A stretch of DNA of 61,613 nucleotides, filler included, from Hausera hauseri (Eukaryota), in NCBI GenBank assembly GCA_046269625.1. It is 12 parts of 12 records of this genome, joined end to end, with 100 filler letters (N's around TTAATTAATTAA, not from the genome) between each part and the next. Parts side by side here need not be neighbours in the genome. Positions count along the whole stretch, not along the records: positions 6,413 to 10,770 come from JBJURY010618998.1; positions 10,871 to 16,450 come from JBJURY010226964.1; 10 more parts are not named here. One strand, written 5' to 3'. Below the pieces are notes generated by a model. That model did not search any database, was not told the DNA's origin, and saw nothing but the letters and a program-made list of their open reading frames with translations. Of this stretch, positions 1-53,650 are shown in pieces (within the stretch, counting starts at the first letter, position 1; the number at the start of each line of letters is the position of its first letter). Both the position numbers and the translations under genes were made by a program.

Positions 1-173
1 GCTTTTTCGAAAGGCAGTGCACACAAATCGTTTTTATTCTCTGTGAAGAGGTGAAATTCAGTGTAATGTCACCGGAACAATGAGCATTGTTTTGTGTCAC
101 TGAAGCAACAACAACGCGAAATGAACGCAAAGAATTTGGCTTTGGTTATATGGACAAAACCACCTATGTTTAA
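1..173 (+). pseudogene. dUTPase C-terminal fragment (Maverick)
   Basis: AFSKGSA..QIVFILCEEVKFSVMSPEQ...RNERKEFGFGYMDKTTYV; matches the tail of the dUTPase at 47937-48407. Confidence 0.8.
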
Positions 174-253
174 TGATTGTGATAATAATAATAATAATAG
201 TTAGTTGTTTTGTTTGTGTAATAAACCAAAAATGATTTTGTACATGATAAGTA

Positions 254-742
254 ATGGCGACAGGATTTATGGATATTGAAACTTTCCAAGATTATAATGC
301 CAGGTACATAATAAATGGATTATGCATTATGGACGTCGGTAACATTTTCAAACCGCTTGTGTGAGTATTCAAGCCCGGTATTGTGTGGAATGACCTGATG
401 GAAAAGGCGAAATTTACAATATGATTTTTCTTTCGACATCGTCATGGACTTCATTGGTATGAAGGCAATTCAACGTTTTGTGCGCCGTGTATTACGGGAG
501 AGATTTGTGATCGTTTTGACATTGAGAATATAATATTTTACATTAAAGATCAAATTGAAGGACAAAAGTTTACACAACTCCATTCACAATTTCCCGAGTT
601 GCGAATGACGATATATTCAACATCAAACAGCTTGCTGGCGATGGAACCTGACAATATTATACGTCCGTATCGTGATCATAGACTGCATTGTGCATACAAA
701 AAATGTCTACGGCTTTGTATTGACTATATTTTATGCAAATAA
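254..742 (+). pseudogene. DEDD/DnaQ-like exonuclease-fold protein of Maverick type
   Basis: MATGFMDIETFQ..CIMD..VFKPGIVW..HGLHWYEG...HRLHCAYKKC, with stops and frameshifts; homolog at 47617-47852 on the minus strand. Confidence 0.55.
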
Positions 743-914
743 ATAAATGCATTCCTCTGTTTCTTTCTTTCTTCCTGTAAATAAGGTCCGCGACATAAGG
801 TCCGTATTAGTCAGTTGAATAGTTCAAAAACTATAAATACGGGTAGGTTATAGTAATAATAATAATCATTATGGCAATAGTTAATAAACTGAAGCAATTC
901 CAAATTTTGATGGA

Positions 915-1353
915 TTGTCAATTTCAGACTTGGTACGATGGTGGCAAATACTCGATAGTAAATTAATTGCGACTGCAGCAGGTGATTTTGAATTTAAAGA
1001 AGATTTAGCGTCAATAGCATTGATGGCAGCAACAGATTGTAGCTCTATAGGAAATCTAATTGTGTTAAATCAAATGTACATTCACCGATTGTACGTTACA
1101 AATTACTTTAATACTGTTGAAACGTACGCGGTGAATTAACGAACTTTAAAGAGAAAACAATAGACAAAATACAAAACTGTCAGTTCATGTGTATTATGTA
1201 AACAAAGAAAAGTGGATACGGTATTCTTAATATGCGGCCATCTTGTTGTTTGTCAAATGTGTTCCATCACCACCATAGTAGTCTACCAATGTCCAGAATG
1301 TAAATGTGCTATAATGGAAATTGTACACATTTATTACGAAAGACGTCTTCAAT
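915..1353 (+). pseudogene. IAP-type C3HC4 RING finger protein
   Basis: Same frame as ORF 915-1139; after two stops it reads CVLCKQRKVDTVFLICGHLVVCQMC...CPECKCAI (from 1188). Confidence 0.75.
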
Positions 1354-1537
1354 AACAGAACGAAAGAGTGTCATGGGCTTCAATGACGAGGAGGTCATTA
1401 TAATTGGTATGTATCATTGTGATATGAGACAATACTCACAAAGTAAATGTCTATTGTTTACAATGGAAACAAACCGGTATAAACAAATTTGTTATAAATA
1501 CAAATGTAATTTCCTTTCACGTTTGTCTTATTAAAAA

Positions 1538-2000
1538 ATGTCTTTGGAAAACAATTCAGCAGGTGACAGTTCCGCGAGTCTCTGAAGAAACCACGGTATG
1601 GCGAATATTCGTCCAGAAATTCCCGGTTGTATAATGGATACAACTTACATTATCTGCGGAACGCTATTCAATTGCCATTGACTCAAACGTCAAAATCAAA
1701 CCGGTGAAATATGGCCTTTTGGTAAAAAAGATCAGCGACGATGATTTGGATACAATGAAAGACACAATTAAAAAAGTTTATAGTGATTTGGCGTAGAGCA
1801 TCGATATCCGAGATATATCGTCGATTATTCTTAACGGAAATATGGCGAAAATTGTCAGTTCACATGGTAAAGAAACAGCAGCAGCAGTTTTTCCATTGGA
1901 AGGAGCTAAAGGCTACCTGACATTGATGCTGAAAGGATTCAAGGAAAGGAGCGATATCAAATCCCCGATATGGAAAGTGGGGAAGTTTCCTATGATTTAA
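1538..2000 (+). pseudogene. Unknown Maverick protein (possible OB-fold), paralog of 48501-48900
   Basis: C-terminal LTLMLKGFKERSDIKSPIWKV versus LNIKLQGYKEKAGIKSPIWCV in the other contig. Confidence 0.5.
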
Positions 2001-2299
2001 CTAACTTACTTTGTGTGTTTTTGTTATTTTAGTTTTTCTCCGATCAGTAAATAATTGTATTCGTGTTACGTATTTCCTTTTCTAGTGTAAGGTTATTCTT
2101 TTACTTTTACTTCTATCTTACTTAATAATAATAGGTTAAGTAAGTCACCGAAAACAAAACACAAAAACCACTGATCAAAATACGTTATTGAAATATAAAA
2201 AACAATATACATCTGATAATTGTCAATGATTGTCACAGTAATTAAAATGAACTGAACTGATTTGTCTGAACCGACAGAGCACCGATTGTTTTGACGCGC

Positions 2300-5176
2300 C
2301 CAATTCTTATTTCGTTCCACCCACTTTCGCTTATGATCGTTACATGACAAAGCGACTTTCGCACTAGTTATTGTGTACAGCTGGTGTTCAATTGATCGGA
2401 TGATTGTTTGCGACACAACAGCCACTGATTGTCCTCTTTCTGCCGTTTTTTCATATATACGGCGATAGTCACCGCGGTCGACTTCCGTCTGTCTCAGCCG
2501 GACTCCTTTTTCCCGCATTTTCGGTCCACAGTCCGTCAGAAGACTGTAGCACTTTGGGCGTAGGAATATCCATTCCCGATACCAGACACGACCTTCACAT
2601 TCATCCTTGAAGCAGCCGATTTTGTTGGTGATCGCGCTGTTGTACAATGGATGATCCGGTGGATAGTTGCACGTGTCCAGTAATCCATCTGACTGAATTT
2701 TCTGCAGTAGCTGTTCGCAATTGACTTTTTTGCAGCCGCAGAAACAAAATTCTGTGTCACCGGCAATAATATTAATGTCACAGCCGTCAAACATTTACCG
2801 GTAATGTGCCAAATCGCAATACTGTAGCTCATACATCCGCAACTTGCTCAGGTCCAATACCACCTGTCCGATGTAACTTGGCCGGTCGAGAATAACTTCT
2901 TCTCTGTTTAACAGCACCACAACCAATCCATCGGCAATGTGCATTGACATCAAACAGTCTGTACATTTCCGGGTCTTGCAGCAGCTCAATGTCTCAATCC
3001 AATGACATTAGAGCTAACGCCCAACTCATTCCTGGTATAGAATAAAAGTTGAGTTGCTCCAGCCTATTTTCAGCCAACGCTTTCGCTCAAAACGCCTGGA
3101 ACACATCGGCTAATAAGCACACGTTCAGTTTAAGATACTGGAACATGTAATCCGACATTTTTCTACAGCCGAGTTCTGTCCAACACCTCTGTGCTTTCCG
3201 GTATTCATCCTCTGCAATACCAGTCCATGGCGGCGGTAATTCCTCTGCTGTCCGGAGTCGCCCATATGATGTTGCAAAGTAATATGGAAATATGCCTTTG
3301 CTGCGTGAAATATGTGCGAGGAAGTGCGTCAGTGCTATCTGCACATCTGGCAAGGCATTTAATAGCTTTGCCAATGATTCATTGAGAAATTGCAATGAAT
3401 CAAGTATGCGTACCTGGAACTGGTGTATACAAGCAGACAGTGACAGGTATTTCTCCACTGTAGTCGGATTTATGGATAGTTACCAGTGCGGAAATCCGTT
3501 TATTGCCCATTTCAAAATACGGTGACAATCATAACCCCTGAAGTTATGAAATACCACCGGTAAGAATGGTCGTACACGCCTTGCCAAATTTCATGAATTA
3601 CATGCTGCTCCAAAATATCGACCAGTAAAATGATGGGGATCCGGTACGAGCCATTACAGTGCATCACACGGGAATATTTTGTGAAACAGGTAACATTCAT
3701 CTGTGACTGCAAACGTCAGGCGTTCATCTTTATTTGTCCACATTAAAGGTTTATTGCTATTTCTACTGTATCAGGGTGCGATTTCAGTTTCCACTATGGT
3801 TTGCAACTGCTGCAAGAAATCGCGTACACAATTCCGTCTGTGGAAAACATAATATTGAGGTTAACCTGCGGCTTTTATTGGGATAACCAACATACCGACG
3901 GCGATTGGAACATGTTTTTGGTCATATATGTTGTGTCGTAATAAGATAGCTTCAATATCGTCATATGCTACATATGCCGGAATGTCTGTTTTTGACCAAT
4001 CAGTGAACCTGAGTCCCTGTTTGACGGGCATGACATACATTGTGATTCCTGACGAATTTTGTCTGCACAGAGTCACATGTTTTTCCCATATTGTTTCCGA
4101 CCTGCATCTATGAAGACATACAGGACACCATTTACACTGTATCCGTTTTTCGAGGAAATGGTCATGCTCCATGTTCAGTAGTCTGTCCAGATTTGTCACT
4201 ACAATGTAATGGTACTTTTTTCTTGTTCCAGTAGCAACAAATTTACTGAGCAGCCATTTGGGTTCCGACTACGATATATTATATACACATGAGGATTTTT
4301 GTAAATTTCTTCATCTTCCGGTATTTCTACGACTGTGTTGTACCGAAACACGTTGATTATTAGTGTCGGATTACGCCGTCGAATAGCCGGAATGGATTTC
4401 AGTTTCATCGGCATCCAGCTTTCATCGAAATCCAATTTGGAAAAATATTTCTGGTACTGTTTTGGACGAGATGCACTATGTCTTTCCACTTCGCAATATT
4501 TCAATACCGCCAGAATACTGTAAAGAAAACAGTATTCATCATTAGAATTTTTTACATTCACTACCGCCAGAGACTACTTCGGAGCTGCAGGTGTCGGTAT
4601 GAATGATCGTCCAGACAAATATATTATGTCACTCGACTTTGTTTTGATAAAGCCGAGGGTGAGAATTTGTATAATTCGCCATCCACTACCGTTTTCCGTG
4701 TAGTTGGCGATTTTCTCCTTGAGCTTTTCGCCTACGTCGGCAATAAAATAATTGGCATATGGTACAGCTCGATGTGACAGGTACCATTGTTTCCTGTCGC
4801 TTTTAACGTTTCCAAATTCTGCAAGTGCATAATATTGCACTTTGCAGTGTTGTTGTTGGAATTTCTCCACTTCTGATTCCAACCGGTTGTGCACATTTTG
4901 CGGAACATGTCTCAATTGCGTTGTTCTTGTTATTTCCGCAGACAGGGCCGCTTTTATGTTTACGTACGATCTGTTCAGATCGTATTTGACATTAATGTCG
5001 GATTCCTGTTGTATCTGTTCCTCTTGCTGTTGCTGCTTCTGCTGATTCTGCTGTTGTTCTTCTTCTTCTTGCAGCTCGGTACTGGTTCTGATGTATTTGT
5101 CCAAACTTGCTGATGCCTTACATTTCCTACTGGTTGTTTTTGTTGAAGGGATGCTGTTGATTTTTGTTGATTCCAT
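2300..5176 (-). pseudogene. Protein-primed family B DNA polymerase (pPolB), fragmented and internally deleted
   Basis: Motifs in order: GSGW..SFIPTP, NVKNSNDEYCFLYSILA, DPHHFTGRYFGAACNS (Endo VII-like insert), VFHNFRGYD, ILDSLQFL, KGIFPY, LLADVF, PSYIGQVVLDLSK, GDTE (motif C variant), KIGCFKDE, LRPKCYS, KVALS. Confidence 0.9.
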
Positions 5177-6312
5177 TAATATTTGTTTTTTCGACCTCCA
5201 CTGAAGCTGGTTTAGTGGTCTTGGTGATCATTGTAAAATTGTTCATAGTTGATTTCATCAACTATTGAACAACCGCGACAAATATTGTCCCGTTTACCGT
5301 GCACCTTTGTGGCGCCATAGTATTGCTCTATTGCTCGTGCACTGTACTTTTACAATACTGTGGGTACATCGGGCAATGCACTACCATCATCTTCTTCGAC
5401 CGTGTATACGGTCCGAGATAATGCTTGCGTACCTCATAAAAATCGGGTGCGGACAATGGGCTGAAATATTACACGTCGGACACAGATGTGTCCATTCCAA
5501 CGTTGTAATATTTCACCATCTGTTGATGGCACTGTTCTGCCTCTTCGTGCATGCGAGAGACGCAGTACTTGAGATATTGTGAACCTTTCTAAATTTAAAC
5601 AAATTAAAGTAAATGTTATCTTTAAATTGAAAACATTAAATACAATTAAATAATAAACTGATATACACTTATATACACTAACTTATTTCTTTTACGCATG
5701 TATAAACATATCAGCCATATTACATACTACAACTTAAATGGTAGAGTAAATTGAAAGTGAAATTCGGAAATGGACAGATGAAATAATGACTGGACACGTT
5801 TGACGTTCAGTATCTGTGTGAGCTGATAGAAACCAGAATAATGAGCAGACAAGAGTATATTGAATTAATAGTCCGATTTCTCTTCATAAAACGTATCGAA
5901 GATGAGTGGGGAAGAAAGCGGCAACGACGGATTAATTTCGTCATTGGAATTATATTTTCTGCTTCGCTTTGTATTGTAATGAAAAAGTTGATTCACCGTA
6001 TTTAATCACAAATATATATTAGTTCGCTATGTTTGTTTTCGCGAATAAATATAATTTATATGTTACATTTCAGTATAAATACTTGTGCTTCTTTACGGTA
6101 TGACATTACGACATGTCCCATTTAACAGAACGCGTTCGTTTATATCACTCGTTCGACGGTCTCCGGAGTCATCCTTACAATCTTGATTGACATTTACATG
6201 ATGGACAATACTGTTTGCCCAAGAGATACTCCGGCGTGATGAGGAGAATTGAAGGGCACGAGAACCTTATCTACGACATATGAAGCAGGTTCTTAGTGAT
6301 ATAAACACGATA

Positions 6313-6412: not shown

Positions 6413-8672
6413 CAAAAGACAGCTTTTGTAACTGCAGATGGACATTATGAATTTAACCGGATGGCATTCGGGATGAAAAATGCCCCAGCAACATTTCAAA
6501 CTGCTATGGATATAATTACAATGGATGCACCACATATAATGTGTTATGTAGGTGATGTAATAATTGCATCAACCGATTATAAGCAGCACAAGGAACACCT
6601 TAAAGATATGTTAGAGAGATATGCACTTCTAGGAATAAAAGTTAGTTTCAAAAAATGCTAGTTTGCTCGAACCAAAGTAGACTTCCTAGGCCACACAGTA
6701 ATCCGAGAAGGCACTAGTCCTCAAAATGTAAAGATAAATAAAATCCAAGATTTTTCAGTCCGAAAGACGGTTAAGGGAGTCCGAAACTTTCTTGGCTTCA
6801 CAGGCTACTATTGAAAATTTGTTAAAAATTATCAAGAGATAGCTTCACCTCTGCATTCATTACTACAAGAAAATTCTAAACTTGTTTGGACTCAAGAAAG
6901 TCAAAAGGTTTATTAACAATTAAAAGATAATCTATTAGCTGCACCTATATTAGCGTACCCAGACATGTCGAAACCATATTTTATAGCAAAAGACGCAAGC
7001 AAAATTGGAATTGGAGTTGTCCTATCACAGAAGGATGATCAAGGTCAAGAACATCCTATATCGTTTGGAGGAAGAAAACTGAGAAAACATAAGAACTATT
7101 CAACAATCGAACGTGAACTTCTTGCAATAGTTTATGCGTTAGAACAGTATGGCCAATATTTATCGGAAATTAAACCGATCGTTATTTACACTGATCATAA
7201 ACCACTACAGTGGTTGAAAAATCATAAGAACCCAAATAGCCGACTGATGAAATGGGCAATGTTGCTTCAGCCATATGATCTGAAGTTTGAATATAAAATG
7301 TGGAAAGAGAATGCTAATGCGGATTATATGTCAAGAATGCCAGAAGATATAGATCAAATTGAAAAAGAATCCACGGATAGACCTGGTGTCATAGCAGCAA
7401 TATGGAGTATTACAGAAAAGGAAAGATCACTATTACAAAAACAGCAAAATGATGAACAAATTAAATAAATCAAGAAATACTTAAAGAGAAAAGTAATACC
7501 CAGTGACATTGATCTCTATGCCCATTTTAAAAAGTTTGTCGAAAATTATGAAATAAAGGATGATGTACTATATTACTATTATAAAGGAAAACCAGTTGTA
7601 ATTGTTCCCCAAGAAGATATAAAATTGTTATTGACACAGTACCATGATGGCATGATGGGAGGTCACCAATCAGTAAAAAGAACCTTAGAAAGATTGAAAA
7701 GAAAATATTATTGGTATACTATGACTAAAGATGTTCAAGATTGGTGCAAGAGTTGCCCAATCTGTGCCACTAGAAAGAAAACCGGTTCAAAAATTAAAGT
7801 TCCTCATAAACCATTAGAATGTCCATTAGCCCCAATGGAATTTTTAGCCATGGATATCCTAGGATCGTTACCTATGACGATAAATGAAAACAAATACATG
7901 CTAGTGTTCGTCGACTTATTCTCCAGATGGCCAGTTCTAATACCAATACCAGATCAAAAAACCCAGACTATTGCTCGAGCCTTCGTCGAAGAAATTGTTT
8001 TCATTTATGGTGCGCTAATCAAATTATTGGCGGACCAAGCACCGAACTTCACAGGAGAAGTTATGGCGGTAATATCAAAAATATCTCAGATACTACAGTT
8101 GAAAACTACTTCGTACCATCCTCAAACAAATGGAACAGTGGAGAGATTTAAGGGATTATTAACTAATATGTTGGCTACCATGGTTAATGAACGACAAAGC
8201 GATTGGGACGAGTATATTAAGCTGTGTTTATTCGCTATTAGAAATACAATTAACCCGGCAACAAAAGAAACACCTGTTTATTTAATGTATCTTAGAGATA
8301 CTCATATGCCAATCGATTTGGATTTTAAAATGCCTGTGTCTCACTTGAAAGACGTAGAGTATAAAGAATTATTACAAGAAAAATTAGGATATGTATGGAA
8401 CTTACCCTAAGGTCACATAAAGATATGTCAAAAAGAATATAAAGATCGCTATGACGAAAAAGCAAAACCACACAACTTTAAACCTGGAGATAAGGTAATG
8501 TTGCATACCCCATTGAGTAAAAAGGGAAAGACACCAAAATTGGACAGACCATATAAAGGCCCATATATGGTCCAAAAAGTAGATGAAACTAACATACTTA
8601 AATAAAAATAAAAGAAATAAAATAGATTCAAAAGTCCATGTAAATAGATGTAAGCTCGCACCGACAGAATGA
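6413..8672 (+). pseudogene. pol: Ty3/Gypsy pol (RT C-term, RNase H, integrase), lineage A
   Basis: MAFGMKNAPATFQ, CYVGDV, DASKIGIG..YSTIERELLA..YTDHKPL, HHCC zinc finger, YHPQTNGTVER, YKGPY; RT closely similar to 16100-16450. Confidence 0.93.
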
Positions 8673-9975
8673 AAATAAGGAACGAAAACCTCAGTTCATT
8701 ATTAATGACAACATTTTTAATACTAACTTTAGTGACTAGTATATCAGCCCAGTCCTTGGATGTAACTTACAAAGCCGTACAAGTTGGAAAATACCCTTGT
8801 ATAAAAATTACGGCTAATCAAAATTTAACAACACATGAATATATACATATACTCATATCGAAATTACCTATAGTGGAGAAAGCAATGCCAGAAAACTGCA
8901 ATTTGTATTATAATAATTCAATACACATTTGTTGTGGGCTTTCGTTTGGAGAAGTGTATAGGATCAAATATGCAATTGGAAAGAGTGATCACAGCTACAG
9001 AACATATTTCTCATTCCCTGGTACTACCCATTATTTCCATCGACCCTATTTTCTTATTTCATTTTACACTAAGATAATGAGAAACGGACCCTGTGTAACG
9101 GCGAAACCCGACGTTGCAATTACGAGATATGTTCCATTCAAATACAATATATTCGATGGAACTAATAATACATATTGTGAACTAAGCTATCAAAATCTGT
9201 ATATATGTTGTCATATTGTTTTTGATAAAGAATATGCGATATATTATTGGACCACGTGTAACGGTTATACTTGATCAAAAACCTCGGATGGTCCAAAGAT
9301 AATAGTGAGATCTCCAGTAAGAAAAACTACTACTTCAAGAAAACAACTATTTCGACAATGCGATCTAGCATTTCTACGATATCAACAACGGAACCCAAGA
9401 AGGTTATTAAAGAATTAGATATAATTATCCAACCAACAACCTACTCATTGGCATTACGGTATCTGATTTAAAATCCACGAATATAAAATTTGAGTGTCAT
9501 TCTGATCATAAAGTAGTCAGCGAAGGAGTGTTAACTCCGGACGAACCAACATCGGCCTGTATGCTTTAAAAGCTGACACTAATTATAGAATTGTTATAAC
9601 AGAGCAAGACGAAGATGGACAAGTTCTACAAGTTGTTAGAAAGATAGAAAAAACGTTGAAATCACCAATGACCGTTCCAAAGAGAGTCATAAAAACAACT
9701 ACTATATAAGTTCAAAGAGAAACTTCTAATAAATACCTTTGGATAATGAGTATACTATGTGTTCTTTTAATATTATTAGTCATACTGTTACCTTTAATAA
9801 TTTATTGCTCAGAAATGAGATGGTGACGCCGTATAACAATAGAAATATTAAATCAATTAAAAATTTTAAGGGAAGACTCACAAGATGAGTCAAAAGGGAA
9901 TATAAGTGCGCTTAATAATGAAATTCCACAAATTTCTAAACGGCAAAATTGTCCGTCAATAAAGAAACCATAGGT
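8669..9975 (+). pseudogene. Post-integrase type I membrane protein (signal peptide, two Cys-rich repeats, S/T stalk, TM)
   Basis: Signal LLMTTFLILTLVTSISA; two PC...C.L.Y.N..ICC...F...Y.I.Y units; S/T-rich 9340-9400; TM YLWIMSILCVLLILLVILLPLIIYC at ~9735-9810; broken by stops and frameshifts. Confidence 0.65.
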
Positions 9976-10124
9976 CAAAAAGCCGACCAATCCTGAATGG
10001 CAAGATTGCCCGTTAACTCCTCTTAGCAATAAAAAGTCGAATAAGTAAACGACAAGATTGTCGAACAGCAGATATAATTGTATATTACTGTACAAAGATA
10101 CAGACCGAAGTTACTAAATTTCTT

Positions 10125-10649
10125 GTGACCCCTAAAAACTGTAAACCAAATAAAAGTACCTTTGTTTATACTCCTTTTCTCAAATCTTCTTGGCCAATAT
10201 TTATTTATTTCTTTTTAGTTCAAGAAAGATCCGAGGTTGCAGACAAAACCAAGTCGTTCTATTTTAACATTATCAGTAATCTAAACCAAACGGATAATAA
10301 AGATTATGTCTATTATGGCAAAGCGAATATTATACCGAACAACCTAAAAGGTCACGTTCTCCATCAAAGATCTGGACTGATCATGAAACTACCCAATGCC
10401 TCTACAAAACTATCAAATTTAATCGACATTTCTAGCCTAACTATGTCAGTTTTCATATCTGTAGCAAAGGGCAATCTCCAAATAAAAAGCCGAACACACT
10501 TAAATGATTTCACTGGCACCCTCGGTGTCACGGTTTACACCACAATCCGATTGGATAAGAAATTCTATAGAAATGTTACAATTATTTTGCAAACATATGG
10601 TGGTCCATCTCCGATATATATTATAAACCTTCCATCCGATGGATTATGA
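10125..10649 (+). CDS. Unknown ORF downstream of the membrane ORF, with a hydrophobic signal-like segment and N-glycosylation sequons
   Basis: 174-aa ORF; SWPIFIYFFLVQ segment; NQT, NAS and NVT sequons. Confidence 0.4.
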   Translation: MTPKNCKPNKSTFVYTPFLKSSWPIFIYFFLVQERSEVADKTKSFYFNIISNLNQTDNKDYVYYGKANIIPNNLKGHVLHQRSGLIMKLPNASTKLSNLIDISSLTMSVFISVAKGNLQIKSRTHLNDFTGTLGVTVYTTIRLDKKFYRNVTIILQTYGGPSPIYIINLPSDGL

Positions 10650-10982
10650 AAAGCCTATTTATCCCTCAAACTTGCCCAATCGTGACAATTTACAGCTGGA
10701 ATATTTTTTAAAGAGTACCATTAAAATCAAGAGATCAAATAGTTATATTAGCGACAAATTTTGCTTATCTNNNNNNNNNNNNNNNNNNNNNNNNNNNNNN
10801 NNNNNNNNNNNNNNTTAATTAATTAANNNNNNNNNNNNNNNNNNNNNNNNNNNNNNNNNNNNNNNNNNNNGAAGTAGAGTTAACGCTAATATTACAATTT
10901 CACGCACTGATTCAGCAAGGAGTAGTTCTGAATCAGACGAAAACCCCATTGATCGAACCAAATACTTACAGAAAGGAACTCA

Positions 10983-11760
10983 ATGTCTAGTTCTGGAATA
11001 GGAACTGGCTCAAGTACAACTGGTACAATGGTCCTTCCGACTGACAAGTTGGAAGGAAAACCAGACCAAGATTATAGTAAGTTTTTAATGCAATACCAAA
11101 TGTATTCACAAAGTTTTGAATGGTCAGATGAACTTAGTATATAATGCCTTCCCTTACATCTTAAAGAAATAGCACTTGGTGCTTATGCTCAGCTTGCGGA
11201 TGATGACAAAGCTGATTGGGCTAGCCTTATAAACGCCCTGGAAGAAAGATTCTTATTAGACTCGTGAGGAAAAGGTCAAATAGGAGAGTTTAACAGGCGA
11301 CGCCAAAGGGAAGGCGAAACAGTAAAAGAGTTTGCATGTGCCCTTCAGAAACTGGTTCAGAGAGCGTATGTAGATGTTGATGTAATGAAAGATGCTCTCC
11401 TGGAGCAATTCTGTTTATGGAGTTAATGAAGAAAATCAAAATTATAGTATCGTTTCCGACCTTGACACTTATAAAGAAGCTGTCAGCAAGGCTAGAAAAA
11501 ATTGAATTGAACTATGAGAGAATAGAAAATACGAAAAAGCCTCTCAAAACTGATGATAAAAAAGTGAAAATTTTTCAGCCGAAGAAAAATTTTCAAAAGC
11601 TGTTTTATAAAGTTCAGAATCAAACAGAACAGACGAAGAAGGCTGTGGCAGCAAGACCAACCTCAAAAATCTGCGATGAGGAAACAAACGGTTAACCAGA
11701 ACGGACAACCATTATGCATTGCCTGTCAAAAAAACGGATATTGTTCGCTCTTGTCCTAAC
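10983..11760 (+). pseudogene. gag: Ty3/Gypsy gag (capsid plus CCHC knuckle), lineage A
   Basis: LPLHLKEIALGAY..WASLINALEERF..RRQREGETVKEFACALQKLVQRAY; frameshifted knuckle CIACQKNG..IVRSCP at ~11715-11760. Confidence 0.85.
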
Positions 11761-12674
11761 CAAGGACAGAATGTTGACATAGTAGGCAATATATCTGATA
11801 CGGATAATGAACACGAAACTACAGATAGAGCCTAAAAAAGCAATTGAAAAGCTACAGTAGAAAATTAGATATAAACTAAAAGTAAACTAATAAAGTAGAA
11901 GATGAAAATAAGAGCTTAATTAAAACAGCTGTATCTTGAATTATGGAACAACAAATCCGTGAGAGAAGACAAAAAATGAACGACAAAAATTCAATCATCG
12001 CTCCCGTTGGCAGGTCCAAAAAGACTCCTATATCAGAATCGGATATAGAAAAGAAGAGTTAAGAAAAAGGATAAACCTCTGATACAAGAGGAATTATAGA
12101 CTCCGGAACAGAACTTATCCTCCGGAAGTGGAAGTGAAAATAGTGAGTCAAGTGGAGAAAATGAACCCAGGGACGATAAAAAGAACGAGGAAAAAGAAAA
12201 TAAAGGAAAAATCTCCAAATTATGAGTCTTCACCTGTGGATTTCGACCAGGATGGCATAGAAATAGTTCGGAAAATATCCAGCTATGCCAACCAATAATT
12301 AATCAATGGCACTCGGTTTAGACAAGACCTGTCCATGTTAATGTCACCAACAATAAGCCATCAACAGTTTGCTAATTTATTGGACTTGTTGTTAATGTAT
12401 GCTGCTGGCACAAGTCCATATCAGAATGTTGTGCGATATATGATTTATCGGTACGCTAATAAAGTGACGACAGTCGGGGAAAATCCTGAAGTAATGGTTA
12501 CTCTCTAACAGTATAACCAGGACTTTCATGTTCTGAGGATGAAATCTTTAGACATAATAGCTATATTAAAACAAAATTAATGAATCGGCCTCAACTACAC
12601 AACAAAGAACAGAATATCGTCCACCACAATAATCAGAGAGACAACGAAATCTACAAGCAGATTTCAATTTATCA

Positions 12675-14480
12675 TGGCTAACTAAAGTTATATGTATACT
12701 TCTTCTGTTTAGCCTGATGCAAAAAGCACTTTCAATCATTACTTACGATTGTAGTCAAGCTAAGAAAGGTCCAATATATTCCTTACTAGACTTAGAAAAA
12801 TGGCCATTTGCCAATCTGGCGTCACTAACTACAATATCGGAAAAGGAATACTACGTTTATCAAGAGTCGGAATTTGTGAAAACTAAGGTGAAAGAATGTT
12901 TTGTTCGAAAAAATCACTTTCACTTTATTTGCGGATATTAGTATCGAAATTCAGCAATAGTTGAACCAACTACTCCGTTCGAGCCACTCCCTATAATTAA
13001 ACGAATGTGTAACAAAACAGATCAATATTGGAAATATTCGGTTGAAGGCTCGGAAAGGAAAAATCATTAATAAAAGAATTTTTGTGGCCGTGACAATTGA
13101 TAAGACAGGATATTGTCAGGGTGAGTCCTACAATATCAATGGCGAAATTTTGGACATAGTGGCCATTGAAGATTATCAAGTTGAGCTGAAAGAATACGAT
13201 CCTCAGGAAAGATGATGACATTCCCTGAATGTGATTACTATAATAAAGAGTGTGACACTGGTGAATTAATTGTCATACGAAGTCGATATAAATAAGTGTC
13301 AGTTAGCTTTATTAAAAACCTGGAAAGGTTAATGAAGCAAAAAGACGAATGTACAAAGAAATATCTAAGAGCAGACTAGACCAAGTATCGGATATGATTG
13401 AGACTCCGACCATAGTATATTCAGCAAATCCCCAAGACGAAATGAGATTTAATTGGAAAGCGGTATCAGGAGATGTGACCATACGGTATTTCGAACCAAT
13501 TATAAAGGGATATTTCTATCCATAACAGAAATAGCAATAGCTAAGAGGAAGACTGATAAATCAGAAGTAAAACCCTACCTCTATTTTGACAAGATTAATT
13601 TTATTTATCAATTGCAGCAATAAAATATTTATGCCATGTATTGAGAGATAATATTAAATGATTGCAAACTGAATAGGGAGATAATTAGAAACCGGATATA
13701 TTTGTCATCAATAGAGGATGGAATAATAAAAAGATGCAGTCGAATCACCCGATGCAGATGGGAAGTTCGCTCGAACAATGGGTGCAACGCTTGTAACCTT
13801 CGAGTGTACAAAAGTACCTGTCAAATTAAGACCAACTACTGATTGTACTATGGAGTTACCCGTTTGGTACAAGGAAAAGCCGCGTTTCTTGCAACCAATC
13901 ACACGAACACTATTAAATCCGGAAGAAAACCCATATGTACATCAAAATTGTGCATATACTATGTCGCCAGCATTTCCATTAAGCGACAACTTATGGATCA
14001 GGATGCCGAAAAGGAGCAGATTACTCCACCTCGCAGAATTAGTTTGATTAAGTTGAAAACTGAACAAACGTATAAGCCATTAACAGATCTAGTAAAGATG
14101 GGCATGTATTCCGAACAATATATGGAAAATCATAGACGGATGATGATGTCCCCTCAACAGACAGAAAGTTTTAACGGAGATGTCAATGAAAGTGTTAGCT
14201 GATCACACCAAGAAAGTTAAATGTAAAAATTTGATGGGACCTAACTATGCAAAGATAAGAGCTAAGTATATATTCTAAGCCGCATGGGGATGGTATGTGG
14301 TTTGGTCAATTTAATTCTGGGTGGCTAGAATTTTACTATATCTTTGCCTTTATAAAAGAAAATCTGACTATAATAACTAAGGCATATGGTATTAAACAAG
14401 CTGCTTGATGCACATGAAAAATTATTTGTGCATTGATTCCATCCATAGCCAGTTGCTTTTTGATAAAAAATGCCGAATGG
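12675..14480 (+). pseudogene. env: Chuvirus-like class III fusion glycoprotein (env) between gag and protease
   Basis: WLTKVICILLLFSLMQKALS|IITYDCS..YSLLDLEK; FECTKVPVKLRPTTDCTMELPVWYKEKPRFLQPITRTL; GMYS..RRMMMSP; hydrophobic C-terminal region at ~14290-14460. Confidence 0.8.
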
Positions 14481-14764
14481 AAACAGAAGAAAAATAAGAA
14501 TGAGGAAGATGATAATAATAATGATGATGAACCTCCAGTAAAGATAAACGCGAGGAAACTTAAACCAGTAGAAAATAAAAGAAAGACATGGAGCCTGATT
14601 ACAGCTCGAAATAAAAAGAGGAGAACATTGTTATCAGATATTCCACAAATGCGGAAATAGAGTGAATACCCAATGGAACAATCACATTTTATACCTCCCA
14701 GTGAATACATAAACACATATTGCTCAAGCGATACGGATAATTATGATCAAAACATGTAAAGCTA

Positions 14765-16450
14765 ATGTTTTATCCCTCAGATCCAAACGCCTCTCTAATA
14801 ACTAGTACTGACAAAGGTAAGGTAATTCCGAGGACGGTAATTTGGATAAATGGGTATCCTATTACAGCTATAATCGACACCGGAGAATCTGCCTCAATGA
14901 TCTCACGTAAACAACTGCCAGAACAACTGAAAAAAGTTGCAAAAACCTATGAAAGATATTACGAATGTTGGAGCATTTGGAAATACAGCACAAGTTAAGG
15001 ATCTGATAAAATGCGAGACAAAAGTTCTTAACCAAAAATTTGAACAGGAATTCAAAATAGCTAACGAATTGGTGGCTGAAGCTATACTTGGATGTGACGC
15101 GTTAGCAAAATTAAAAGATATGTGCATACATATGGAGACTCAACAAATCCAGCCATATCGAAGAACAAAGAATGAGAAAAAGGACACAGTGGCCATTAAG
15201 ACGTGCTAAAACCAGCTAGAACGGAGATTGTGCTCAAAGCTCTAGTAGAAGGTCGAGATGAAGATGTTTATATTGAGCCAAACATAACCTTCATGGACAG
15301 GAATGAGCTATGGTTAGCTCATACAATTGATAACATACGAGAACAAGTGATTGTTTGAATAGCCAATGCCTCTAATAAAACCAAACTGCTTAGGAAAGGA
15401 ACAAGAATCGCTTACGTATATAGTATAAAGGATATAGGTAACAACGCAACGAAAGCCATTATCTCCACCGTACAGGAGTTGTCTGAATTCATGGAAAGAC
15501 AACGACATAAACCGCGAACAGAAGGTGGAAAAAGATTAGAAGATGAACAAATGAATAAATTGAAAAGTCATCGCAACAAAAATAAGAAAATAACAAAATT
15601 TGTTAAGACTCCTATTAGCTGGAACGATTATGATTTGTTTGGTAAGAATGGTGCGCTGACACATGGAGAAAGGTATAGTCAAAATATTACAACAATACAA
15701 AGATACCTTTGCAATGGACGAATATGATAAGGGTATAATACCCGATATTAAACATGAGATTAAGCTAAAATCTGGAATGGATATTCCAATCAAAAAGAGG
15801 CCATATCGACTCAGTTATGATAAACGTAAAAAGGCTAAGGAAATAATGGCCAAAATGAAACAATATAATATAATTAGACCAAGTAACTCACCATGGGCGG
15901 CACATATTGTAATGGTGCAAAAGAAAGATGGATCTATTAGGATGTGTGTGGACTACCGCGCCTTGAATGAGGTAACAGTGGAAAACACTTACCCGTTACC
16001 TAGAATTGATGAGATATTGGATAAGTTAAAAGATAAAATGTTATTTACCATATTGGATTTACAAAAAGGTTTCTGGTAGATAGAAGTACAGGAAGAGGAC
16101 AAACAGAAAACAGCTTTAGTGACCGCAGATGGACATTATTAATTTAACCGAATGGCATTTGGAATAAAGCATACCCGAGCACCGTTTCAGACAGCTATGG
16201 ATATAATTACTATGGATACTTCACACATAATGTGTTACGTGGACGATGTTATATTTGCTTCAACCGATTATAAACAGCATAAAGAACATCTAAAAATATG
16301 TTAGAGAGATGTGCACTTTTAGGAATCAAAATTTGTCTAAAAAATGTTTTGCTCGAACTAAAGTTGACTTTTTAGGCCATACAGTAAGTAAACACGGTAT
16401 TAGTCCACAGATTGGAAAAATCAACAAAATTCAGGATTTCCCAGTCCCAA
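14765..16450 (+). pseudogene. pol: Ty3/Gypsy protease and RT, lineage A
   Basis: AIIDTGESASMIS (PR); ILGCD; RPYRLS, SPWAAHIVMVQKKDGSIRMCVDYRALN, YPLPRID, LDLQKGFW, CYVDDV. Confidence 0.92.
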
Positions 16451-17640: not shown

Positions 17641-20600
17641 TTAATTACTTCTGGTTTTATGAGACCTGAGTGTCATTGGAGATGTTCTTTGGTGTAATTT
17701 GAATGAAGCGTGAGGTCTGTAAGACGGATCTTTTGTTCTGTTATCTTGTTGTGTAGGCGTTGGTGGGGAGTCAAAATTTGTTCTTTGTTTTGGTGTGAGC
17801 ATATGTGATTGTTCTTGTGTTTCTTCTCGTGTCTCGAGTGGTATTTCGTTTCTTTTGGGTATGACTCTTGTCTCTAGTTTTGGTGTCTCCCTTCTCTTGG
17901 GTATGGCTCCTGTCTCTCGTGTTGGTGTACATTTTGGTGTCTCCTTTCTCTTGGGTATGGCTTCTGTCTCTCGTGTGGGTGTTTGTCTGTTGGACCTGTT
18001 ATCTTCGGAGTCGTGTATTTCTAGGTTAGTTGGTGATTGGTGAGGTTTCTTCGATGGTGTTTTTGACGTGTGAGAGTTTGTTTCGTGAATGATTTGTGGA
18101 AGTGCATCATTGTGTGAGGTGTCGGATATGAGGTCATCAGAGCTTGAATCAGATAGATTGTCATTTATGATCGAATGACGCTTAGCGCTCAATGAGTCAT
18201 CAACGATAGGTGAATTCCTTGTTATTTCCTTGTTCGAATCTTCCACTCTTGGTTGTTGAGTTGCGATGGGGTGATGGAGAAAGTATTTGTACTCCCTTAT
18301 TGGTGGTGGATCTTCGTTGTTTGACGCATTGGTTTTGGACTTATCTTTTCGGTTGTCGTCGGGTTTCCTTGTCATGTCTTTCCTTTTCGATGTTGGTCTT
18401 TCACTCTCCTCATCCGATCTCTTTTCCTCATACATCCAATAATCTTTGTTCTTAAACGATAGTTGGGAGTATGGATGTATCGGTGCCTTAGCTATTTTTA
18501 CATTGTCTAAGTGTGCGGTGAAAGTTTTCCCTGTATTGAGACACTCACACATTATTTTGTTTCCCCCCAGAAGGGATCTACAAATATACGGTCCTGACCA
18601 TTTCTTAAATAGCTTGGAGGACTGATGAGGTTTCTTTACTGCCAAAAGAAACACATAGTTCCCTACCTTTATCGGTCTGTCAGGGGCTCTTGCATGTTGC
18701 CTAGAGATGTTTTTGGCAGTGGTGTCTTCGAGATGATCTCTACCTAAGTCTCTAATTTCCCTCGCTCTTTCTACGATGGATTGTACGAAATCTGAGACAT
18801 GTTCTCCTTCCTCCACCATTCCTTTGTTGTAAAAGGTGTGTGGAGAAGAATAGTCAGGTAGTTCCCATGGTAGACGTTTCACATAGCCATGTAGTAGATA
18901 ATGTGGTGATGTGCCTATTGATCGATTGTAGGCACTGTTGATCGAAATTTGTGCAAAAGGAAGGTAGGCACTCCAATCCTTATGGTTGTTAGCTACATAG
19001 CTTCTTAGGTAGTTGGCGATGTTGGCGTTCTCGCGTTCAACTAAACCGTTAGAAGCGGGGTGTCTCACGGAAATACACACTTTCTTTACTCTCCATTGCT
19101 TGCACAGCTGTTGAAACAGTTCGGAGGTAAATTCACTGGCCCCATCGGAGATTAACGTTTCCGGAGCTCCATGGTTCATGATTACTCTAGTTAGGAGAGC
19201 TTTGGCCACTTCTTCGCTTTTCCTCGTCTTGGTGGCTACGATCTCGACGTATCTTGTGAGTGCGTCCTTGAAGACAAGAATGTATTTTTCACCCGTTTTT
19301 TCACATGCTGGTAAAGGGCCTAAGGTGTCCATGTGGCATCGACTGAAAGGGGTAAAGGGCAAGGGCCACTTATTTAAGGCCGCGGGTTTTGGTGTATTTC
19401 CCTTTACTTTGAGACAAATCTCGCATGTTTGGCAATATTTAGTTACCAAGCCCGTCATATGAGGGAATATAAATCTCTCCTTGATCCTCTTTTCCGTCCT
19501 CTGTATTCCCCCATGTCCCGCTCCTAATCCAGCGTGTGCATTTTCAATCACTGAATAGATTAAGGAGTCAGGCACTTGAATCAAATCTCTGCCATCTTTG
19601 TTAGCCCAATGTAGGATGTTTTTCCTAAACACGTGTGGATAAGTCTCTTCATTGTTACGTCCCTTACTATTTTCCTTTCGTGTCCATTCGTAGAGTTTAC
19701 CCACCCTTGGACATTTTATTTGTTCTTTTCTTAAGACTTCTTCGGTGAGAGGAAGAATCTCCTTCGGTAGGCTCTTTGCTGTAAACCTACACACCTGGGG
19801 TGAGGGATTGCGCGATAGAAAGTCGGGGACGACGTTAAGTCTTCCCTTCCTATACGAAATGGTAGGATTAAACGAATTAATATACAAAACCCATCTAGCC
19901 ATGCGTCCAGATTCTTGTTTGTGTCTCAAGATGTGCACTAAAGAGGCATTATCTGTCTGCACTTCGACTGGGTAACCTAGGATGGTGTTTTTGTATTTCT
20001 TGAACGCATGTACGATTGCCAGGCATTCAAGTTCGATCGTTGGGTAGTTGAGCTCTGCCTTAGTGAGTCCTCGTGAGATGAATGATAAAGGCTTCTCCCG
20101 GCCTTCCTTGTCCAACTGGTATAGCACTGCGGCTATCCCAACTTGTGAAGCGTCCGTGTTGATGTAAAATTTCTTTTTATAGCACGGATAATTCAATTGG
20201 GGTTCAATGATGAGCTTCTCCTTGAGAGTATCGAAGGCTCTCTGTTGTTCGGGTCCCCAAACGAATTGAGTTGACTTCCTTGTAAGTTGTGTCAGCGGTT
20301 TTGCGACTTCTGCATATTTTGCAATGTGGTTCCGAAAATATCCGAAGAAACCCAAAAGACTCTGAGTCTCCTTGACATTAGTCGGCGGCACGAAAGTTTG
20401 CATGGTTTGCAGTTTCGCTGGGTCAGGTGATATACCCTCTTTGTTTAATTTGAAGCCCAGATAAATTACTGAACTTCTGAAAAAGTTACATTTTGATAGC
20501 TTAATTTTTAGATTGTTCCTTCGGAAGGAGTTGAATACTTCCTCCAGTTTAGAGTAATGGCTGGGTTTGTCCTTGGTGCAGATGAGTACATCGTCAAGAA

Positions 20601-22845
20601 AGACAAAAACGTTTTCTCTCAGAAGTTCCCCAAGAACAATATTCATTACTCGGCTAAAAAGACTGGGCGCAGTCTTTATCCCGAAGTTCATTCTTGTGGG
20701 ACAGAAGTGTCCCTTTCTTGTCCTGAAGGCCATGAGTTTTTGGCTTTCTTCCTCAATTTCGATTGAGTTGTAGGCGTCGAGCAAATCGAGGTTAGTGAAA
20801 TAGGTGTTTCCCGCTAGCGAGGACAAAATGTCCTCAATCGATGGGATAGGGTAATTGTCACTCTCGATGTAATTGTTAAGGTATCTATAATCTGTACATA
20901 TGCGTACTCTTGTAGTGTTCTTCTTCGGTATCACCAAGAGGGGTGATGAATGGGGTGATGTACAAGGCTTTATGTACCCCTTTCTGAGACTCTCATCCAC
21001 CCACTCATCCACTTTAACTAAGTAAGAGTGAGGGAGTCTATATTGCTTTCGAAATATTACCTTTGGTGCGTTAGGCTGAAGATTCACCTTGTACTTCGTG
21101 ATTGGGCACGGTTCCACCGTGTCGTCGTCAAGAGCAATCACATCGCGATGCTTTAACAAGAAGTCGAGTAATTGTGACATTTGAGAAGGGTCTTCGAGTA
21201 AGTTTTCTTCGGACTCTTTCCCTTCTAATGCGTTTTTAATGATATCACGATATTCTTTCCTGAGTTCTTTGGTCGAAAGACCATCGGAGATCGTGACTGC
21301 GTTTATTGTAGGACGGGGGCTCTCTTCCGGCAATACTATAATAGGTGAGCCTATAGAGAGTAAATTCCCCTTCGTTATTTCAATCTCGCTCGGGCTGAGA
21401 TTGATTGCTTCTATGCACACAGTGCCATCTTCAACGGCGCTTACAGTGTTTCCTAGGAAGACTGTATCCCGGAGTCGATTCTGCTCCGAAGCGATGACCA
21501 ATCCATTCCAAGGTTTGGTTCTTCCTGGAGATAATATGTCGGCCTTTATGACCTTTTTTGAGTGTGGGGGTAAGGTGGTGCCCCCCCTGGCGTAGAGATT
21601 ATAGACTACTTCATCATCTATTAGATAATCTCCACAAATAATGCTTTCCCTTTTTGGGAAAGTTTGTGCCCTTCGGTCTACTAATCTCCCTTTTTTCATG
21701 CTGCTATCTATGGAAGCGGAAAGAGGAATATTGACCTTCGCGGCAGTAATATCTTGTTCCATCACAATGGAAGAGCAAGTTTGAGAAAGACTTTGGTGCG
21801 AGCGATAATTTAATGTCTTATCTTGACACTGCGCTGAAGAACCCGAAGGTTCGTGCCACCTGGCCTCTCCCCACTTAGTCGTAATAGGCTGAAAAATGTC
21901 ACCGGATGGGCCTTTGAGTGGCTTCTCATCATGAAGATTCTGTAAGGATAATGAAGTCTCGGGTATCCCTGAGTTAGTAGGGTCCGAATCTCCTTCTTTA
22001 GGAGAATCATAGTTAATAATGTGGCGGTTCGCAGTACGTCCATAACCTTCTCGAATCCGATCAAAGGTGTCACTTGTAGCGTCCGCAGTGTATCGAGTTT
22101 TTCCATTGCAGGGCTCGATCACCCTAGAGTTATAGTTAATAATTTGGCGGTTTGCAGTACGTCCATAGCCTTCTTGTTCCTTCTGCATTCGAGGAACGGC
22201 GTCGCATGTCGCTTCCGCGGGTGCTCGATTTACCATGTCGGAGGGTTCGGCTACCCGGTGGGGGTATTCCTGCTCGGTCATCCCCTGATTTGAAGTGAGG
22301 CGGTATATAGCAGAGAGCTTCTTCATTGATTTTCCGCCAGTCTCTTGTATCAAGACTGTTTTATCTTTGAAGTTGTACCAGAAAGGTATGTCTTCTAAGG
22401 CAGCAGATCCTAGGAGCAGTCCACTCCTGCCGGGGCAATGATTATCTTCTACGATTTGAGCGTTAATAGCGTACCAGGCCTTGTGAAATTGAATATATAA
22501 TAATGTTTCACCAACGGGTTTGACCCTACTTTGGTTGAAGGCGAATAATGTAATTTGAGGTGAACTTTTTAACGGCTCTTCAATTTTGCCTTCCCATAGC
22601 TGTTCCCACAGTCTCTTTGAGATCAGATTCGACGAAGCGGCGCTGTCGACCAGGATTTGCATATGGGTTGGTTCATCCTCTTTATTTACAGCTACTTGAG
22701 CTTTTATGTAATAAGAAGGCCCAATACGAGGAGTAATATTTAATTCATGGAGAAGATAGTCTTGGGGGTGCCCTGAGTTGGAAGAGATAATTCCTATTTC
22801 TGCCTCTAGAAGTCTCTCTGGTGCTCTGCTACTTACTGAAAATCC
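17641..22845 (-). CDS. pol: Pol polyprotein (PR-RT-RNase H-IN with long C-terminal extension), expressed by -1 frameshift
   Basis: ILVDSAASSNLIS; VFLDDVL; NTDASQVGIAA..ELECLA; HHCC, DDE core, WSGPY; the frame stays open upstream of ATG 22662 to the gag overlap. Confidence 0.95.
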   Translation of the reverse strand, partial: GFSVSSRAPERLLEAEIGIISSNSGHPQDYLLHELNITPRIGPSYYIKAQVAVNKEDEPTHMQILVDSAASSNLISKRLWEQLWEGKIEEPLKSSPQITLFAFNQSRVKPVGETLLYIQFHKAWYAINAQIVEDNHCPGRSGLLLGSAALEDIPFWYNFKDKTVLIQETGGKSMKKLSAIYRLTSNQGMTEQEYPHRVAEPSDMVNRAPAEATCDAVPRMQKEQEGYGRTANRQIINYNSRVIEPCNGKTRYTADATSDTFDRIREGYGRTANRHIINYDSPKEGDSDPTNSGIPETSLSLQNLHDEKPLKGPSGDIFQPITTKWGEARWHEPSGSSAQCQDKTLNYRSHQSLSQTCSSIVMEQDITAAKVNIPLSASIDSSMKKGRLVDRRAQTFPKRESIICGDYLIDDEVVYNLYARGGTTLPPHSKKVIKADILSPGRTKPWNGLVIASEQNRLRDTVFLGNTVSAVEDGTVCIEAINLSPSEIEITKGNLLSIGSPIIVLPEESPRPTINAVTISDGLSTKELRKEYRDIIKNALEGKESEENLLEDPSQMSQLLDFLLKHRDVIALDDDTVEPCPITKYKVNLQPNAPKVIFRKQYRLPHSYLVKVDEWVDESLRKGYIKPCTSPHSSPLLVIPKKNTTRVRICTDYRYLNNYIESDNYPIPSIEDILSSLAGNTYFTNLDLLDAYNSIEIEEESQKLMAFRTRKGHFCPTRMNFGIKTAPSLFSRVMNIVLGELLRENVFVFLDDVLICTKDKPSHYSKLEEVFNSFRRNNLKIKLSKCNFFRSSVIYLGFKLNKEGISPDPAKLQTMQTFVPPTNVKETQSLLGFFGYFRNHIAKYAEVAKPLTQLTRKSTQFVWGPEQQRAFDTLKEKLIIEPQLNYPCYKKKFYINTDASQVGIAAVLYQLDKEGREKPLSFISRGLTKAELNYPTIELECLAIVHAFKKYKNTILGYPVEVQTDNASLVHILRHKQESGRMARWVLYINSFNPTISYRKGRLNVVPDFLSRNPSPQVCRFTAKSLPKEILPLTEEVLRKEQIKCPRVGKLYEWTRKENSKGRNNEETYPHVFRKNILHWANKDGRDLIQVPDSLIYSVIENAHAGLGAGHGGIQRTEKRIKERFIFPHMTGLVTKYCQTCEICLKVKGNTPKPAALNKWPLPFTPFSRCHMDTLGPLPACEKTGEKYILVFKDALTRYVEIVATKTRKSEEVAKALLTRVIMNHGAPETLISDGASEFTSELFQQLCKQWRVKKVCISVRHPASNGLVERENANIANYLRSYVANNHKDWSAYLPFAQISINSAYNRSIGTSPHYLLHGYVKRLPWELPDYSSPHTFYNKGMVEEGEHVSDFVQSIVERAREIRDLGRDHLEDTTAKNISRQHARAPDRPIKVGNYVFLLAVKKPHQSSKLFKKWSGPYICRSLLGGNKIMCECLNTGKTFTAHLDNVKIAKAPIHPYSQLSFKNKDYWMYEEKRSDEESERPTSKRKDMTRKPDDNRKDKSKTNASNNEDPPPIREYKYFLHHPIATQQPRVEDSNKEITRNSPIVDDSLSAKRHSIINDNLSDSSSDDLISDTSHNDALPQIIHETNSHTSKTPSKKPHQSPTNLEIHDSEDNRSNRQTPTRETEAIPKRKETPKCTPTRETGAIPKRRETPKLETRVIPKRNEIPLETREETQEQSHMLTPKQRTNFDSPPTPTQQDNRTKDPSYRPHASFKLHQRTSPMTLRSHKTRSN

Positions 22846-24872: not shown

Positions 24873-24974
24873 TTTATAATAATAAGTAAAAATTTTCTTT
24901 TACCTTTCGTTTTTAGAAGACACTGTTTCTTCCGCTAGTGGAGGTTTTTTCTTTCTTCACGACGTCTTCAGAAA

Positions 24975-28680: not shown

Positions 28681-28989
28681 CCTCTGCATTGTTTACTTCG
28701 TCTATAATGGTCTGAATTAGGTCAATCATTTTGTAATATTCGTACAGGATATCTTCAACGAACGAATCTTTGTAGTTACTTTGCTTTGTATTTCGTTGTT
28801 TATCTTTGTTTAGTGTTTGATTAATCATGCTTATTATCTGATCTGTATCCTTGGTGTGCTTTCTTCGTGCTGCTTTTTGTACATACGGATGAATTTTCTG
28901 CGAATAATATTCTTTTAAGTCCTGTATGTCATCGTAATCGGGATTAACATAGTCATTATAGCTTTGATCAATGTCATTTTCTTAAAGTC

Positions 28990-38250: not shown

Positions 38251-38256
38251 ATCGAA

Positions 38257-45847: not shown

Positions 45848-46054
45848 GTCCGTTTATCGTTATCTCTGGTGATAAAATAATATTTTCGGTTAGTTGTTTC
45901 AGTTCTTCGTTAGGGTATAAGTCGTTAACTGCCATATTGTTCGCATTGTTTCTAATTAATGGTTCTTGGACTATTGGATTTTGGAACGATTTCACTCCTT
46001 GTGTTCCCCAGACTGTTGATCTTTTTCTATATTGCAAGCTATCCTCGGTGAGTA

Positions 46055-53640: not shown

Positions 53641-53650
53641 CAAATGATTA

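Follow-up and report, generated by a model that had tools for sequence, protein, structure and literature searches.

Fusogen-bearing Ty3/gypsy retrotransposons with a second membrane protein after the integrase, and a decayed relative in Hausera hauseri

Envelope-bearing retrotransposons have so far been treated as systems with a single surface protein. Errantiviruses with the GAG-ENV-POL order and an Env of the HSV/gB type are recorded from Nematoda, Bryozoa and Platyhelminthes (Chary & Hayashi, PMC13524379, citing Sacco et al. 2022), by authors who state that other arrangements of open reading frames (ORFs) were not searched by them; the Burro/GYPSM1 elements of planarians have a single polyprotein in which gag and pol flank an in-frame Env that matches mononegavirus fusion glycoproteins, along with accessory domains (PMC6431247); and Anakin elements of the BEL/Pao type carry a chuvirus glycoprotein (PMC7642597; named in PMC12440569). 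Exchangeable ORF3s are described downstream of pol in the long terminal repeat (LTR) retrotransposons of bdelloids, some of them small, Cys-containing and bearing a transmembrane (TM) segment (PMC5408684), and Env-independent spread by means of a small TM protein is also known (PMC11952523). Here we analyse a window of 61,613 nucleotides from Hausera hauseri (GCA_046269625.1), which consists of 12 contigs joined by N-spacers, and in particular contig c2 (6413-10770), where a decayed membrane-protein gene, ORF1, follows the integrase (IN) of a Ty3/gypsy element. An earlier reading of this DNA (the original prediction) proposed, from the similarity between the reverse transcriptase (RT) of c2 and that of contig c3 (10871-16450), which bears a fusion glycoprotein (G), that the element may pair a fusogen in its polyprotein with a separate attachment or immune-modulating protein. 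The two contigs are separate sequences, with no physical link shown. We find a fusogen together with a second membrane protein in intact relatives from the same pol clade; the RT similarity proved a weak basis for the proposal, and the second protein of the relatives is not homologous to ORF1.

The relatives were collected by a search with the c2 pol among proteins of 1279-3650 aa, which produced 299 matches, 120 of them listed. Among the matches listed, P0003 and P0004 have the highest full-length identity (44% over the whole query, across 731 aa). Both are single ORFs that encode Gag, a Monjiviricetes-type G (PF24664, E 2e-97 and 1e-95, respectively), protease (PR), RT, RNase H (RH), IN and then a second membrane protein, hereafter X, which starts with a hydrophobic segment, continues through a Cys-rich domain and a stalk to a TM helix and ends in a tail with a PPxY motif. 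Their hydrophobic segments lie at residues 553, 1120, 2610 and 2735 of P0003 and at 542, 1106, 2437 and 2579 of P0004. The same post-integrase cassette is present in P0006 (42% identity), the sequence of which starts after PR. The three cassettes share 6 invariant Cys at 43-51% identity, and PPxY, a motif that recruits Nedd4 and ESCRT, occurs shortly after the TM helix in all three tails. The cassette ectodomain is confidently modelled by AlphaFold2 (AF2) as all-helical (pLDDT 77.5). It has no sequence match in Pfam or the PDB, and fold comparison yielded at best a VIA Z of 5.3 (rmsd 2.7, 67 aligned) and a viral Foldseek E of 2.9, matches so weak that we assign it no fold. Between the integrase and the cassette of P0003, a second aspartyl-protease-like stretch was noticed (residues 2467-2558; three protease profiles, Asp_protease E 0.014), which is not reported for P0004.

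Among the 120 listed proteins, six (P0003, P0004, P0006, P0121, P0071 and P0087) contain a hydrophobic segment after the integrase, by a test that is blind to separate downstream ORFs. In P0121 this segment belongs to an ordinary Baculo_F Env. Long post-integrase extensions with hydrophobic segments, 32 or 18 Cys and no Pfam family are found in P0071 (residues 1471-2631) and P0087 (residues 1752-2579), and possibly represent unclassified Envs. Outside the clade described below, the polyprotein P0052 (3263 aa) carries a superfamily 1 helicase (AAA_11/AAA_12), then G and then pol. A scan of GTDB for loci of the clade confirmed none of 73.

Phylogenetic analysis of the RT-RH region placed W_c2, W_c3, W_c5, W_c9 and W_c11 from the window in one clade with P0003, P0004 and P0006, with an SH value of 99 in a FastTree analysis of 125 rows and support of 99/99 in an IQ-TREE analysis of 27 rows. 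The smaller tree, whose bootstrap had not converged completely, contains 5 window copies, with c4 left out, and 22 proteins chosen by hand from the 119 that were usable. G lies upstream of PR in all five members in which that region is present (c3, c9, c11, P0003 and P0004), and a Cys-rich/TM cassette follows IN in all four members in which that region is present (c2, P0003, P0004 and P0006). Within the clade, c2 and c3 form a sister pair. Their RT genes, the similarity of which the original prediction had noted, are 79.5% identical over the 352 nt in which they overlap (6413-6764 and 16104-16450); calling them close relatives was nevertheless an overstatement, because the synonymous divergence (dS) in two blocks of 63 and 34 codons is 1.35 and 1.67 (nonsynonymous divergence, dN, 0.07 and 0.13; dN/dS about 0.05-0.08). 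Given this high dS, c2 and c3 are two old, separate subfamilies rather than pieces of one family. In c3, P0003 and P0004 a class III fusogen (PF24664) separates gag from pol; c2 starts in RT. A second G-PR-RT-RH-IN subfamily of the same clade is represented in the window by two copies, 70-74% identical to each other (42988-47516 on the minus strand and 52851-57254 on the plus strand), whose contigs end within the integrase, leaving the post-integrase slot unseen.

The c2 pol is colinear with residues 1670-2386 of P0003 (RT end, RH and IN), and its integrase matches Integrase_H2C2 (E 1.4e-21) and rve (E 6.8e-9) in Pfam, so that it displays the (PR)-RT-RH-IN order of Ty3/gypsy elements (Metaviridae). 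It is decayed, with 5 stops in 730 codons and one frame change in an A-rich stretch near 8600-8625. ORF1 begins exactly where pol ends: its ATG (8669-8671) overlaps the stop of the integrase-end frame (8670-8672), so that no LTR could fit between the two genes. The possibility, entertained in the original prediction, that the gene lies outside the 3' LTR accordingly has no application to ORF1. No LTR-like repeat was detected in 6413-16450, c2 being cut at both ends; nor did we find a purine run of at least 11 after 8669 or any Rfam match in 6413-16450. ORF1 is itself broken, by 4 in-frame stops in the 383 codons counted and by three frame changes that our reading of the frames places between about 9335 and about 9565, and the A content of its coding strand (38%) is like that of pol (39%). 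The zero spacing from the integrase stop, the decay in common with pol and the similar A-rich bias place ORF1 inside the element. Stop-free runs of at least 200 codons occurred in none of 2000 shuffles of 8669-10770. ORF1 is a real, element-encoded, decayed orphan gene for a membrane protein.

By hydropathy, and with continuity across the frame changes inferred, ORF1 has the topology of a type I membrane protein, with an N-terminal signal, an ectodomain, a single C-proximal TM helix and a tail (Table 1). The components that the original prediction named within this protein were all recovered: a signal-like stretch (8690-8746; KD hydropathy 1.83 over 19 aa), two tandem Cys-rich domains in which both quoted Cys motifs are present, an S/T stalk and a TM helix. 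The layout it proposed needs correction in two respects: the gene is interrupted by stops and frame changes, and a third, beta-type extracellular segment had been missed. The two Cys-rich repeats align at the protein level with a score of 63, against 27.1±5.0 in shuffled sequences, a value reached in none of 5000 shuffles. No repeat stands out in the DNA, where 312 of 1000 shuffles attain the observed score. Because the repeat is visible in protein and not in DNA, the duplication must be old.

Table 1. Features of contig c2 and of the sister subfamily on contig c3 (positions in the window)
Feature	Position	Strand	Remarks
Decayed pol fragment of a Ty3/gypsy element, from RT end through RNase H to integrase	6413-8672	+	Contig starts inside RT
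ORF1, decayed type I membrane-protein gene	8669-10048	+	Directly after integrase
ORF1 start and signal-peptide-like segment	8669-8749	+	ATG overlaps stop of integrase-end frame (ATGA, 8669-8672)
ORF1 Cys-rich repeat 1	8750-9019	+	Repeat test; FN3-like fold a lead, unproven
ORF1 Cys-rich repeat 2	9041-9310	+	In-frame stop 9272-9274; no Pfam match
ORF1 S/T-rich stretch	9340-9393	+	61% S+T over 18 aa; frame differs from that of the repeats
ORF1 third extracellular segment, beta-strand pattern, FN3-resembling by eye	9394-9660	+	About 90 codons, spread across three frames
ORF1 transmembrane helix	9752-9808	+	KD 3.34 over 19 aa
ORF1 cytoplasmic tail, about 78 codons, two internal stops	9809-10048	+	Motif scan
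ORF2, 210-codon open frame 10017-10649, probably extending in another frame to contig end	10017-10770	+	Beta-rich; no ATG ahead of hydrophobic patch
Gag of sister subfamily, decayed, on c3	11079-11411	+	tblastn to P0003 residues 44-156, E 2e-12
Decayed class III fusion glycoprotein (G) on c3, flanked by Gag and protease	12636-14160	+	Monjiviricetes_fusion E 5.8e-4 and 1.3e-10; matches G of P0003/P0004
RT on c3, sister to RT at 6413	15708-16450	+	100/100 sister pair in tree

Searches for homologs of ORF1 were negative at E 0.01 for 181 candidates of 353-2000 aa (with proteins of similar length falling outside that search) and at E 0.001 for 1.84 billion representatives. Phage records yielded none either, nor did any other contig of the window or the 120 proteins retrieved with pol; of 75 pattern matches in GTDB contigs, none was confirmed. 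A CUE-domain-sized protein that appeared in PDB sequence searches (E 0.01-0.15) was judged a chance match. As for the fold, the best FN3-clan profile, Fn3_Dep-1_3rd, matched repeat 1 only, below the cut-off (E 0.039-0.094; 13-14.3 bits versus 26), and Atlas placed the repeats near clusters of the FN3/Ig type at 0.82, a value that gives only a lead (all 10 best named matches are from the same family or clan as the top Ig/FN3-type match; recognition 1567). The single-sequence AF2 model of the repeats is poor (pLDDT 44.7), with repeat 1 alpha/beta and repeat 2 unfolded; the best fold match to it is an alpha/beta one at noise level (VIA Z 7.5, rmsd 3.0, 81 aligned), and Foldseek returned no viral match at E below 0.001. 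The FN3/Ig-like fold that the original prediction had marked for checking retains the Atlas and sub-cut-off Pfam leads, while the model and the fold search do not bear it out. The third segment follows a beta-strand pattern that we take, by eye, to resemble FN3; its separate pieces gave noise-level Pfam matches and no significant similarity to repeats 1 and 2. For the pieces of ORF1 scanned, no Pfam match to a fusion protein was obtained at E up to 1-5, so homology to a viral fusogen or Env is not indicated. Overall, the ectodomain repeats may be beta-sandwiches, for which FN3 is a lead.

Further downstream, the additional ORF noted in the original prediction is real: 199 open codons were seen in none, and 142 in two, of 3000 shuffles of 10049-10770. 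The signal-like segment ascribed to this ORF2 fared less well, its hydrophobic patch being weak (KD 1.23 over 19 aa), without an in-frame Met upstream and overlying a pyrimidine tract that ends in AG (10208-10218). The patch may instead be a candidate splice acceptor (AG at 10218) or a T-rich non-coding stretch. ORF2 likely belongs to the element, and the contig ends at 10770. No homolog was found among 91 candidates, nor any Pfam or PHROG match of weight; in Atlas it comes closest to unnamed clusters with low counts of shared features (0.90-0.92), followed by ConA-like leads (0.83-0.87). A dUTPase, considered by eye, was rejected: ORF2 does not match PF00692, whereas the dUTPase of the window at 48036-48425 scores E 1.9e-17.

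Collectively, G and a second, post-integrase membrane protein occur together in P0003 and P0004, and because these are intact members of one clade that includes c2, we infer the same combination for the window copy. The c2 element probably carried G as well, to judge from the composition of its clade. It would then represent the 3' part of a decayed Ty3/gypsy element with the layout Gag - G - PR-RT-RH-IN - X. Here X would be the element's own second membrane protein of type I; it begins at the integrase end and decayed along with pol. The ectodomain of X varies by subfamily, with tandem Cys-rich repeats in c2 and a single helical, disulfide-type domain in P0003, P0004 and P0006. Two different ectodomains at the same position and with the same topology within one pol clade suggest that the slot is exchangeable. 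In the intact relatives, the four hydrophobic segments would alternate, the signal and the TM of G being followed by the signal and the TM of X, so that Gag and Pol would stay cytosolic and the ectodomains of G and X would face the lumen of the endoplasmic reticulum, freed by signal peptidase. Being encoded in one ORF with Gag and G, X would be made at a ratio of about 1:1 with them, like a structural component. In the reading that we favour, it would be displayed beside G on the particle or the producer-cell membrane, where its exchangeable ectodomain would bind a host ligand, for attachment or contact with target cells, and G would perform fusion.

A host-binding role of X at the surface is, given this architecture, slightly favoured, and the overall reading, that X is a second surface protein binding a host ligand beside G, is the one we favour, at about even odds. 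The fullest version is a tentative proposal, possible rather than probable: two-component entry, in which one four-pass polyprotein would yield both a class III fusogen, encoded between Gag and Pol, and a protein dedicated to receptor binding, encoded in the exchangeable slot after the integrase, with unrelated ectodomains (tandem FN3-like, or new helical Cys-rich) swapped in to set cell or host specificity. Herpesvirus gB indeed requires separate receptor-binding partners. The combinations of gB with gH/gL/gD and of paramyxovirus F with HN/H/G are a functional analogy only, a fusogen with a separate binding protein, with no homology shown.

A number of points weigh against the proposed pairing. 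The class III proteins G of rhabdoviruses and GP64 of baculoviruses act without a partner. ORF1 is unrelated to the cassette of the relatives (hhalign probability 0.1%, no tblastn or HMM match), no homolog of it was found in the searches made, and its tail contains no PPxY, PTAP or YPxL motif. The signal segment of P0006 falls below the hydropathy threshold, and P0052, outside the clade, has G and no post-IN hydrophobic segment in its ORF. Contig c2 begins inside RT, leaving any G upstream of it unseen, and its dS to c3 is near saturation; in this single copy, ORF1 would have been either coupled to pol through overlapping stop and start codons or read in the same frame. Finally, the clade member c5 (28574-30004, minus strand) has RT-RH without an integrase, followed by a 135-codon frame that ends in a hydrophobic segment and has no Pfam match; lacking such a cassette, it is counted on this side, and is uninformative for the slot.

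The main rival, somewhat unlikely in our estimate, holds that X is encoded by the element as an accessory protein, that is, as a host modulator or a trafficking or budding factor on the producer cell (a decoy receptor or a Nedd4-recruiting adaptor), and not as a component of entry. Retention of PPxY in all three tails of the relatives agrees with an adaptor, the weak FN3 leads hint at a receptor-like ectodomain, and unrelated ectodomains in the slot are what genes in conflict with the host would show; moreover, many class III fusogens function alone. Against this rival stand the location of X in one ORF with Gag and G in P0003 and P0004, which would imply structural-level amounts, and the absence of PPxY from the ORF1 tail.

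A different possibility, quite unlikely, is that the c2 subfamily lost G and that ORF1 served as a stand-alone substitute for Env in the usual post-pol position. The slot is indeed the ordinary env/ORF3 position, c2 is without its 5' half and deeply diverged from c3 in dS, and bdelloid LTR elements have small TM ORF3s with no viral homology (PMC5408684). All five informative members of the clade carry G, the sister c3 included, P0003 and P0004 occupy the slot and yet retain G, and ORF1 matches no Pfam fusogen family, all of which count against such a loss.

It is very unlikely that ORF1 (with ORF2) is a captured host receptor-like cDNA, a functionless passenger in one lineage. The receptor-like layout and the failure to find a second copy or homolog would suit a passenger, and LTR elements are known to capture ORFs downstream of pol (PMC6431247); the exact abutment to the IN stop, the pol-like A-rich bias, the conserved membrane protein that fills the same slot in intact relatives and the lack of any cellular homolog among the 1.84 billion representatives (E 0.001) all point the other way. 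That ORF1 is a flanking host gene or the product of mis-assembly is scarcely credible: no LTR was identified and the contig is short and single-copy, but the gene directly abuts the integrase stop and shares the decay of pol.

The remaining contigs of the window hold other mobile elements and repeats. The stretch at 34269-38692 opens with a Gag-like sequence, continues through a long unexplained part whose open frames (156-333 codons) have no Pfam match, and reaches the start of a G at about 38300. A distant gypsy element at 17641-24899 (minus strand) retains intact Gag (688 aa) and Pol (1741 aa); a weak dUTPase-like match (E 0.1) lies between its PR and RT, and its integrase is followed by a long tail of low complexity. 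Two contigs with decayed frames, 1-6312 (minus strand) and 47617-52750, have 530 nt in common at 79%; their frames are presumably B-family DNA polymerase-like, by motifs recognised by eye, and the second contig also contains a dUTPase (48033-48425) and an rve integrase (49924-50529). Both may be Polinton-like candidates. An intact 494-aa transposase of the pogo/Tigger type (DDE_1, CENP-B_N) is encoded at 31539-33023 (minus strand), and a degenerate tandem repeat array with a 1173-codon open frame extends across the contig at 57355-61613.

No report of a second membrane protein downstream of the integrase in gypsy elements that bear G turned up in the open-access literature searched (one could still stand in Repbase entries, in figures or in supplements), so that the layout with two membrane proteins appears to be undescribed within a known kind of envelope-bearing retrotransposon. 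The Gag-Env-Pol order is already published; the part that appears new is the second protein after the integrase. Intact elements that encode a fusogen and another type I protein in a single ORF offer a route to testing how gB-type retroelement Envs find their target cells, and likewise whether specificity evolves through exchange of the cassette with pol and fusogen remaining together. The copy in the window is a dead fragment, and its value lies in a second, unrelated ectodomain in the same slot. Like the G-bearing relatives described here, the GAG-ENV-POL errantiviruses have a pol of the Ty3/gypsy type and a class III fusogen placed between it and gag; unlike them, they are not credited with a second membrane protein after the integrase in the sections consulted (PMC13524379). 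Burro/GYPSM1 elements share the in-frame Env between gag and pol, but they are giants (ORF of about 4,900-5,100 aa) with apoptosis and ubiquitin domains upstream of pol, and the description consulted mentions no post-integrase membrane protein (PMC6431247). Anakin carries the same kind of captured G but belongs to a different retrotransposon superfamily (PMC7642597). The ORF3s of bdelloid elements replace env (PMC5408684), whereas in the clade analysed here the slot after the integrase is filled in elements that also bear a fusogen.

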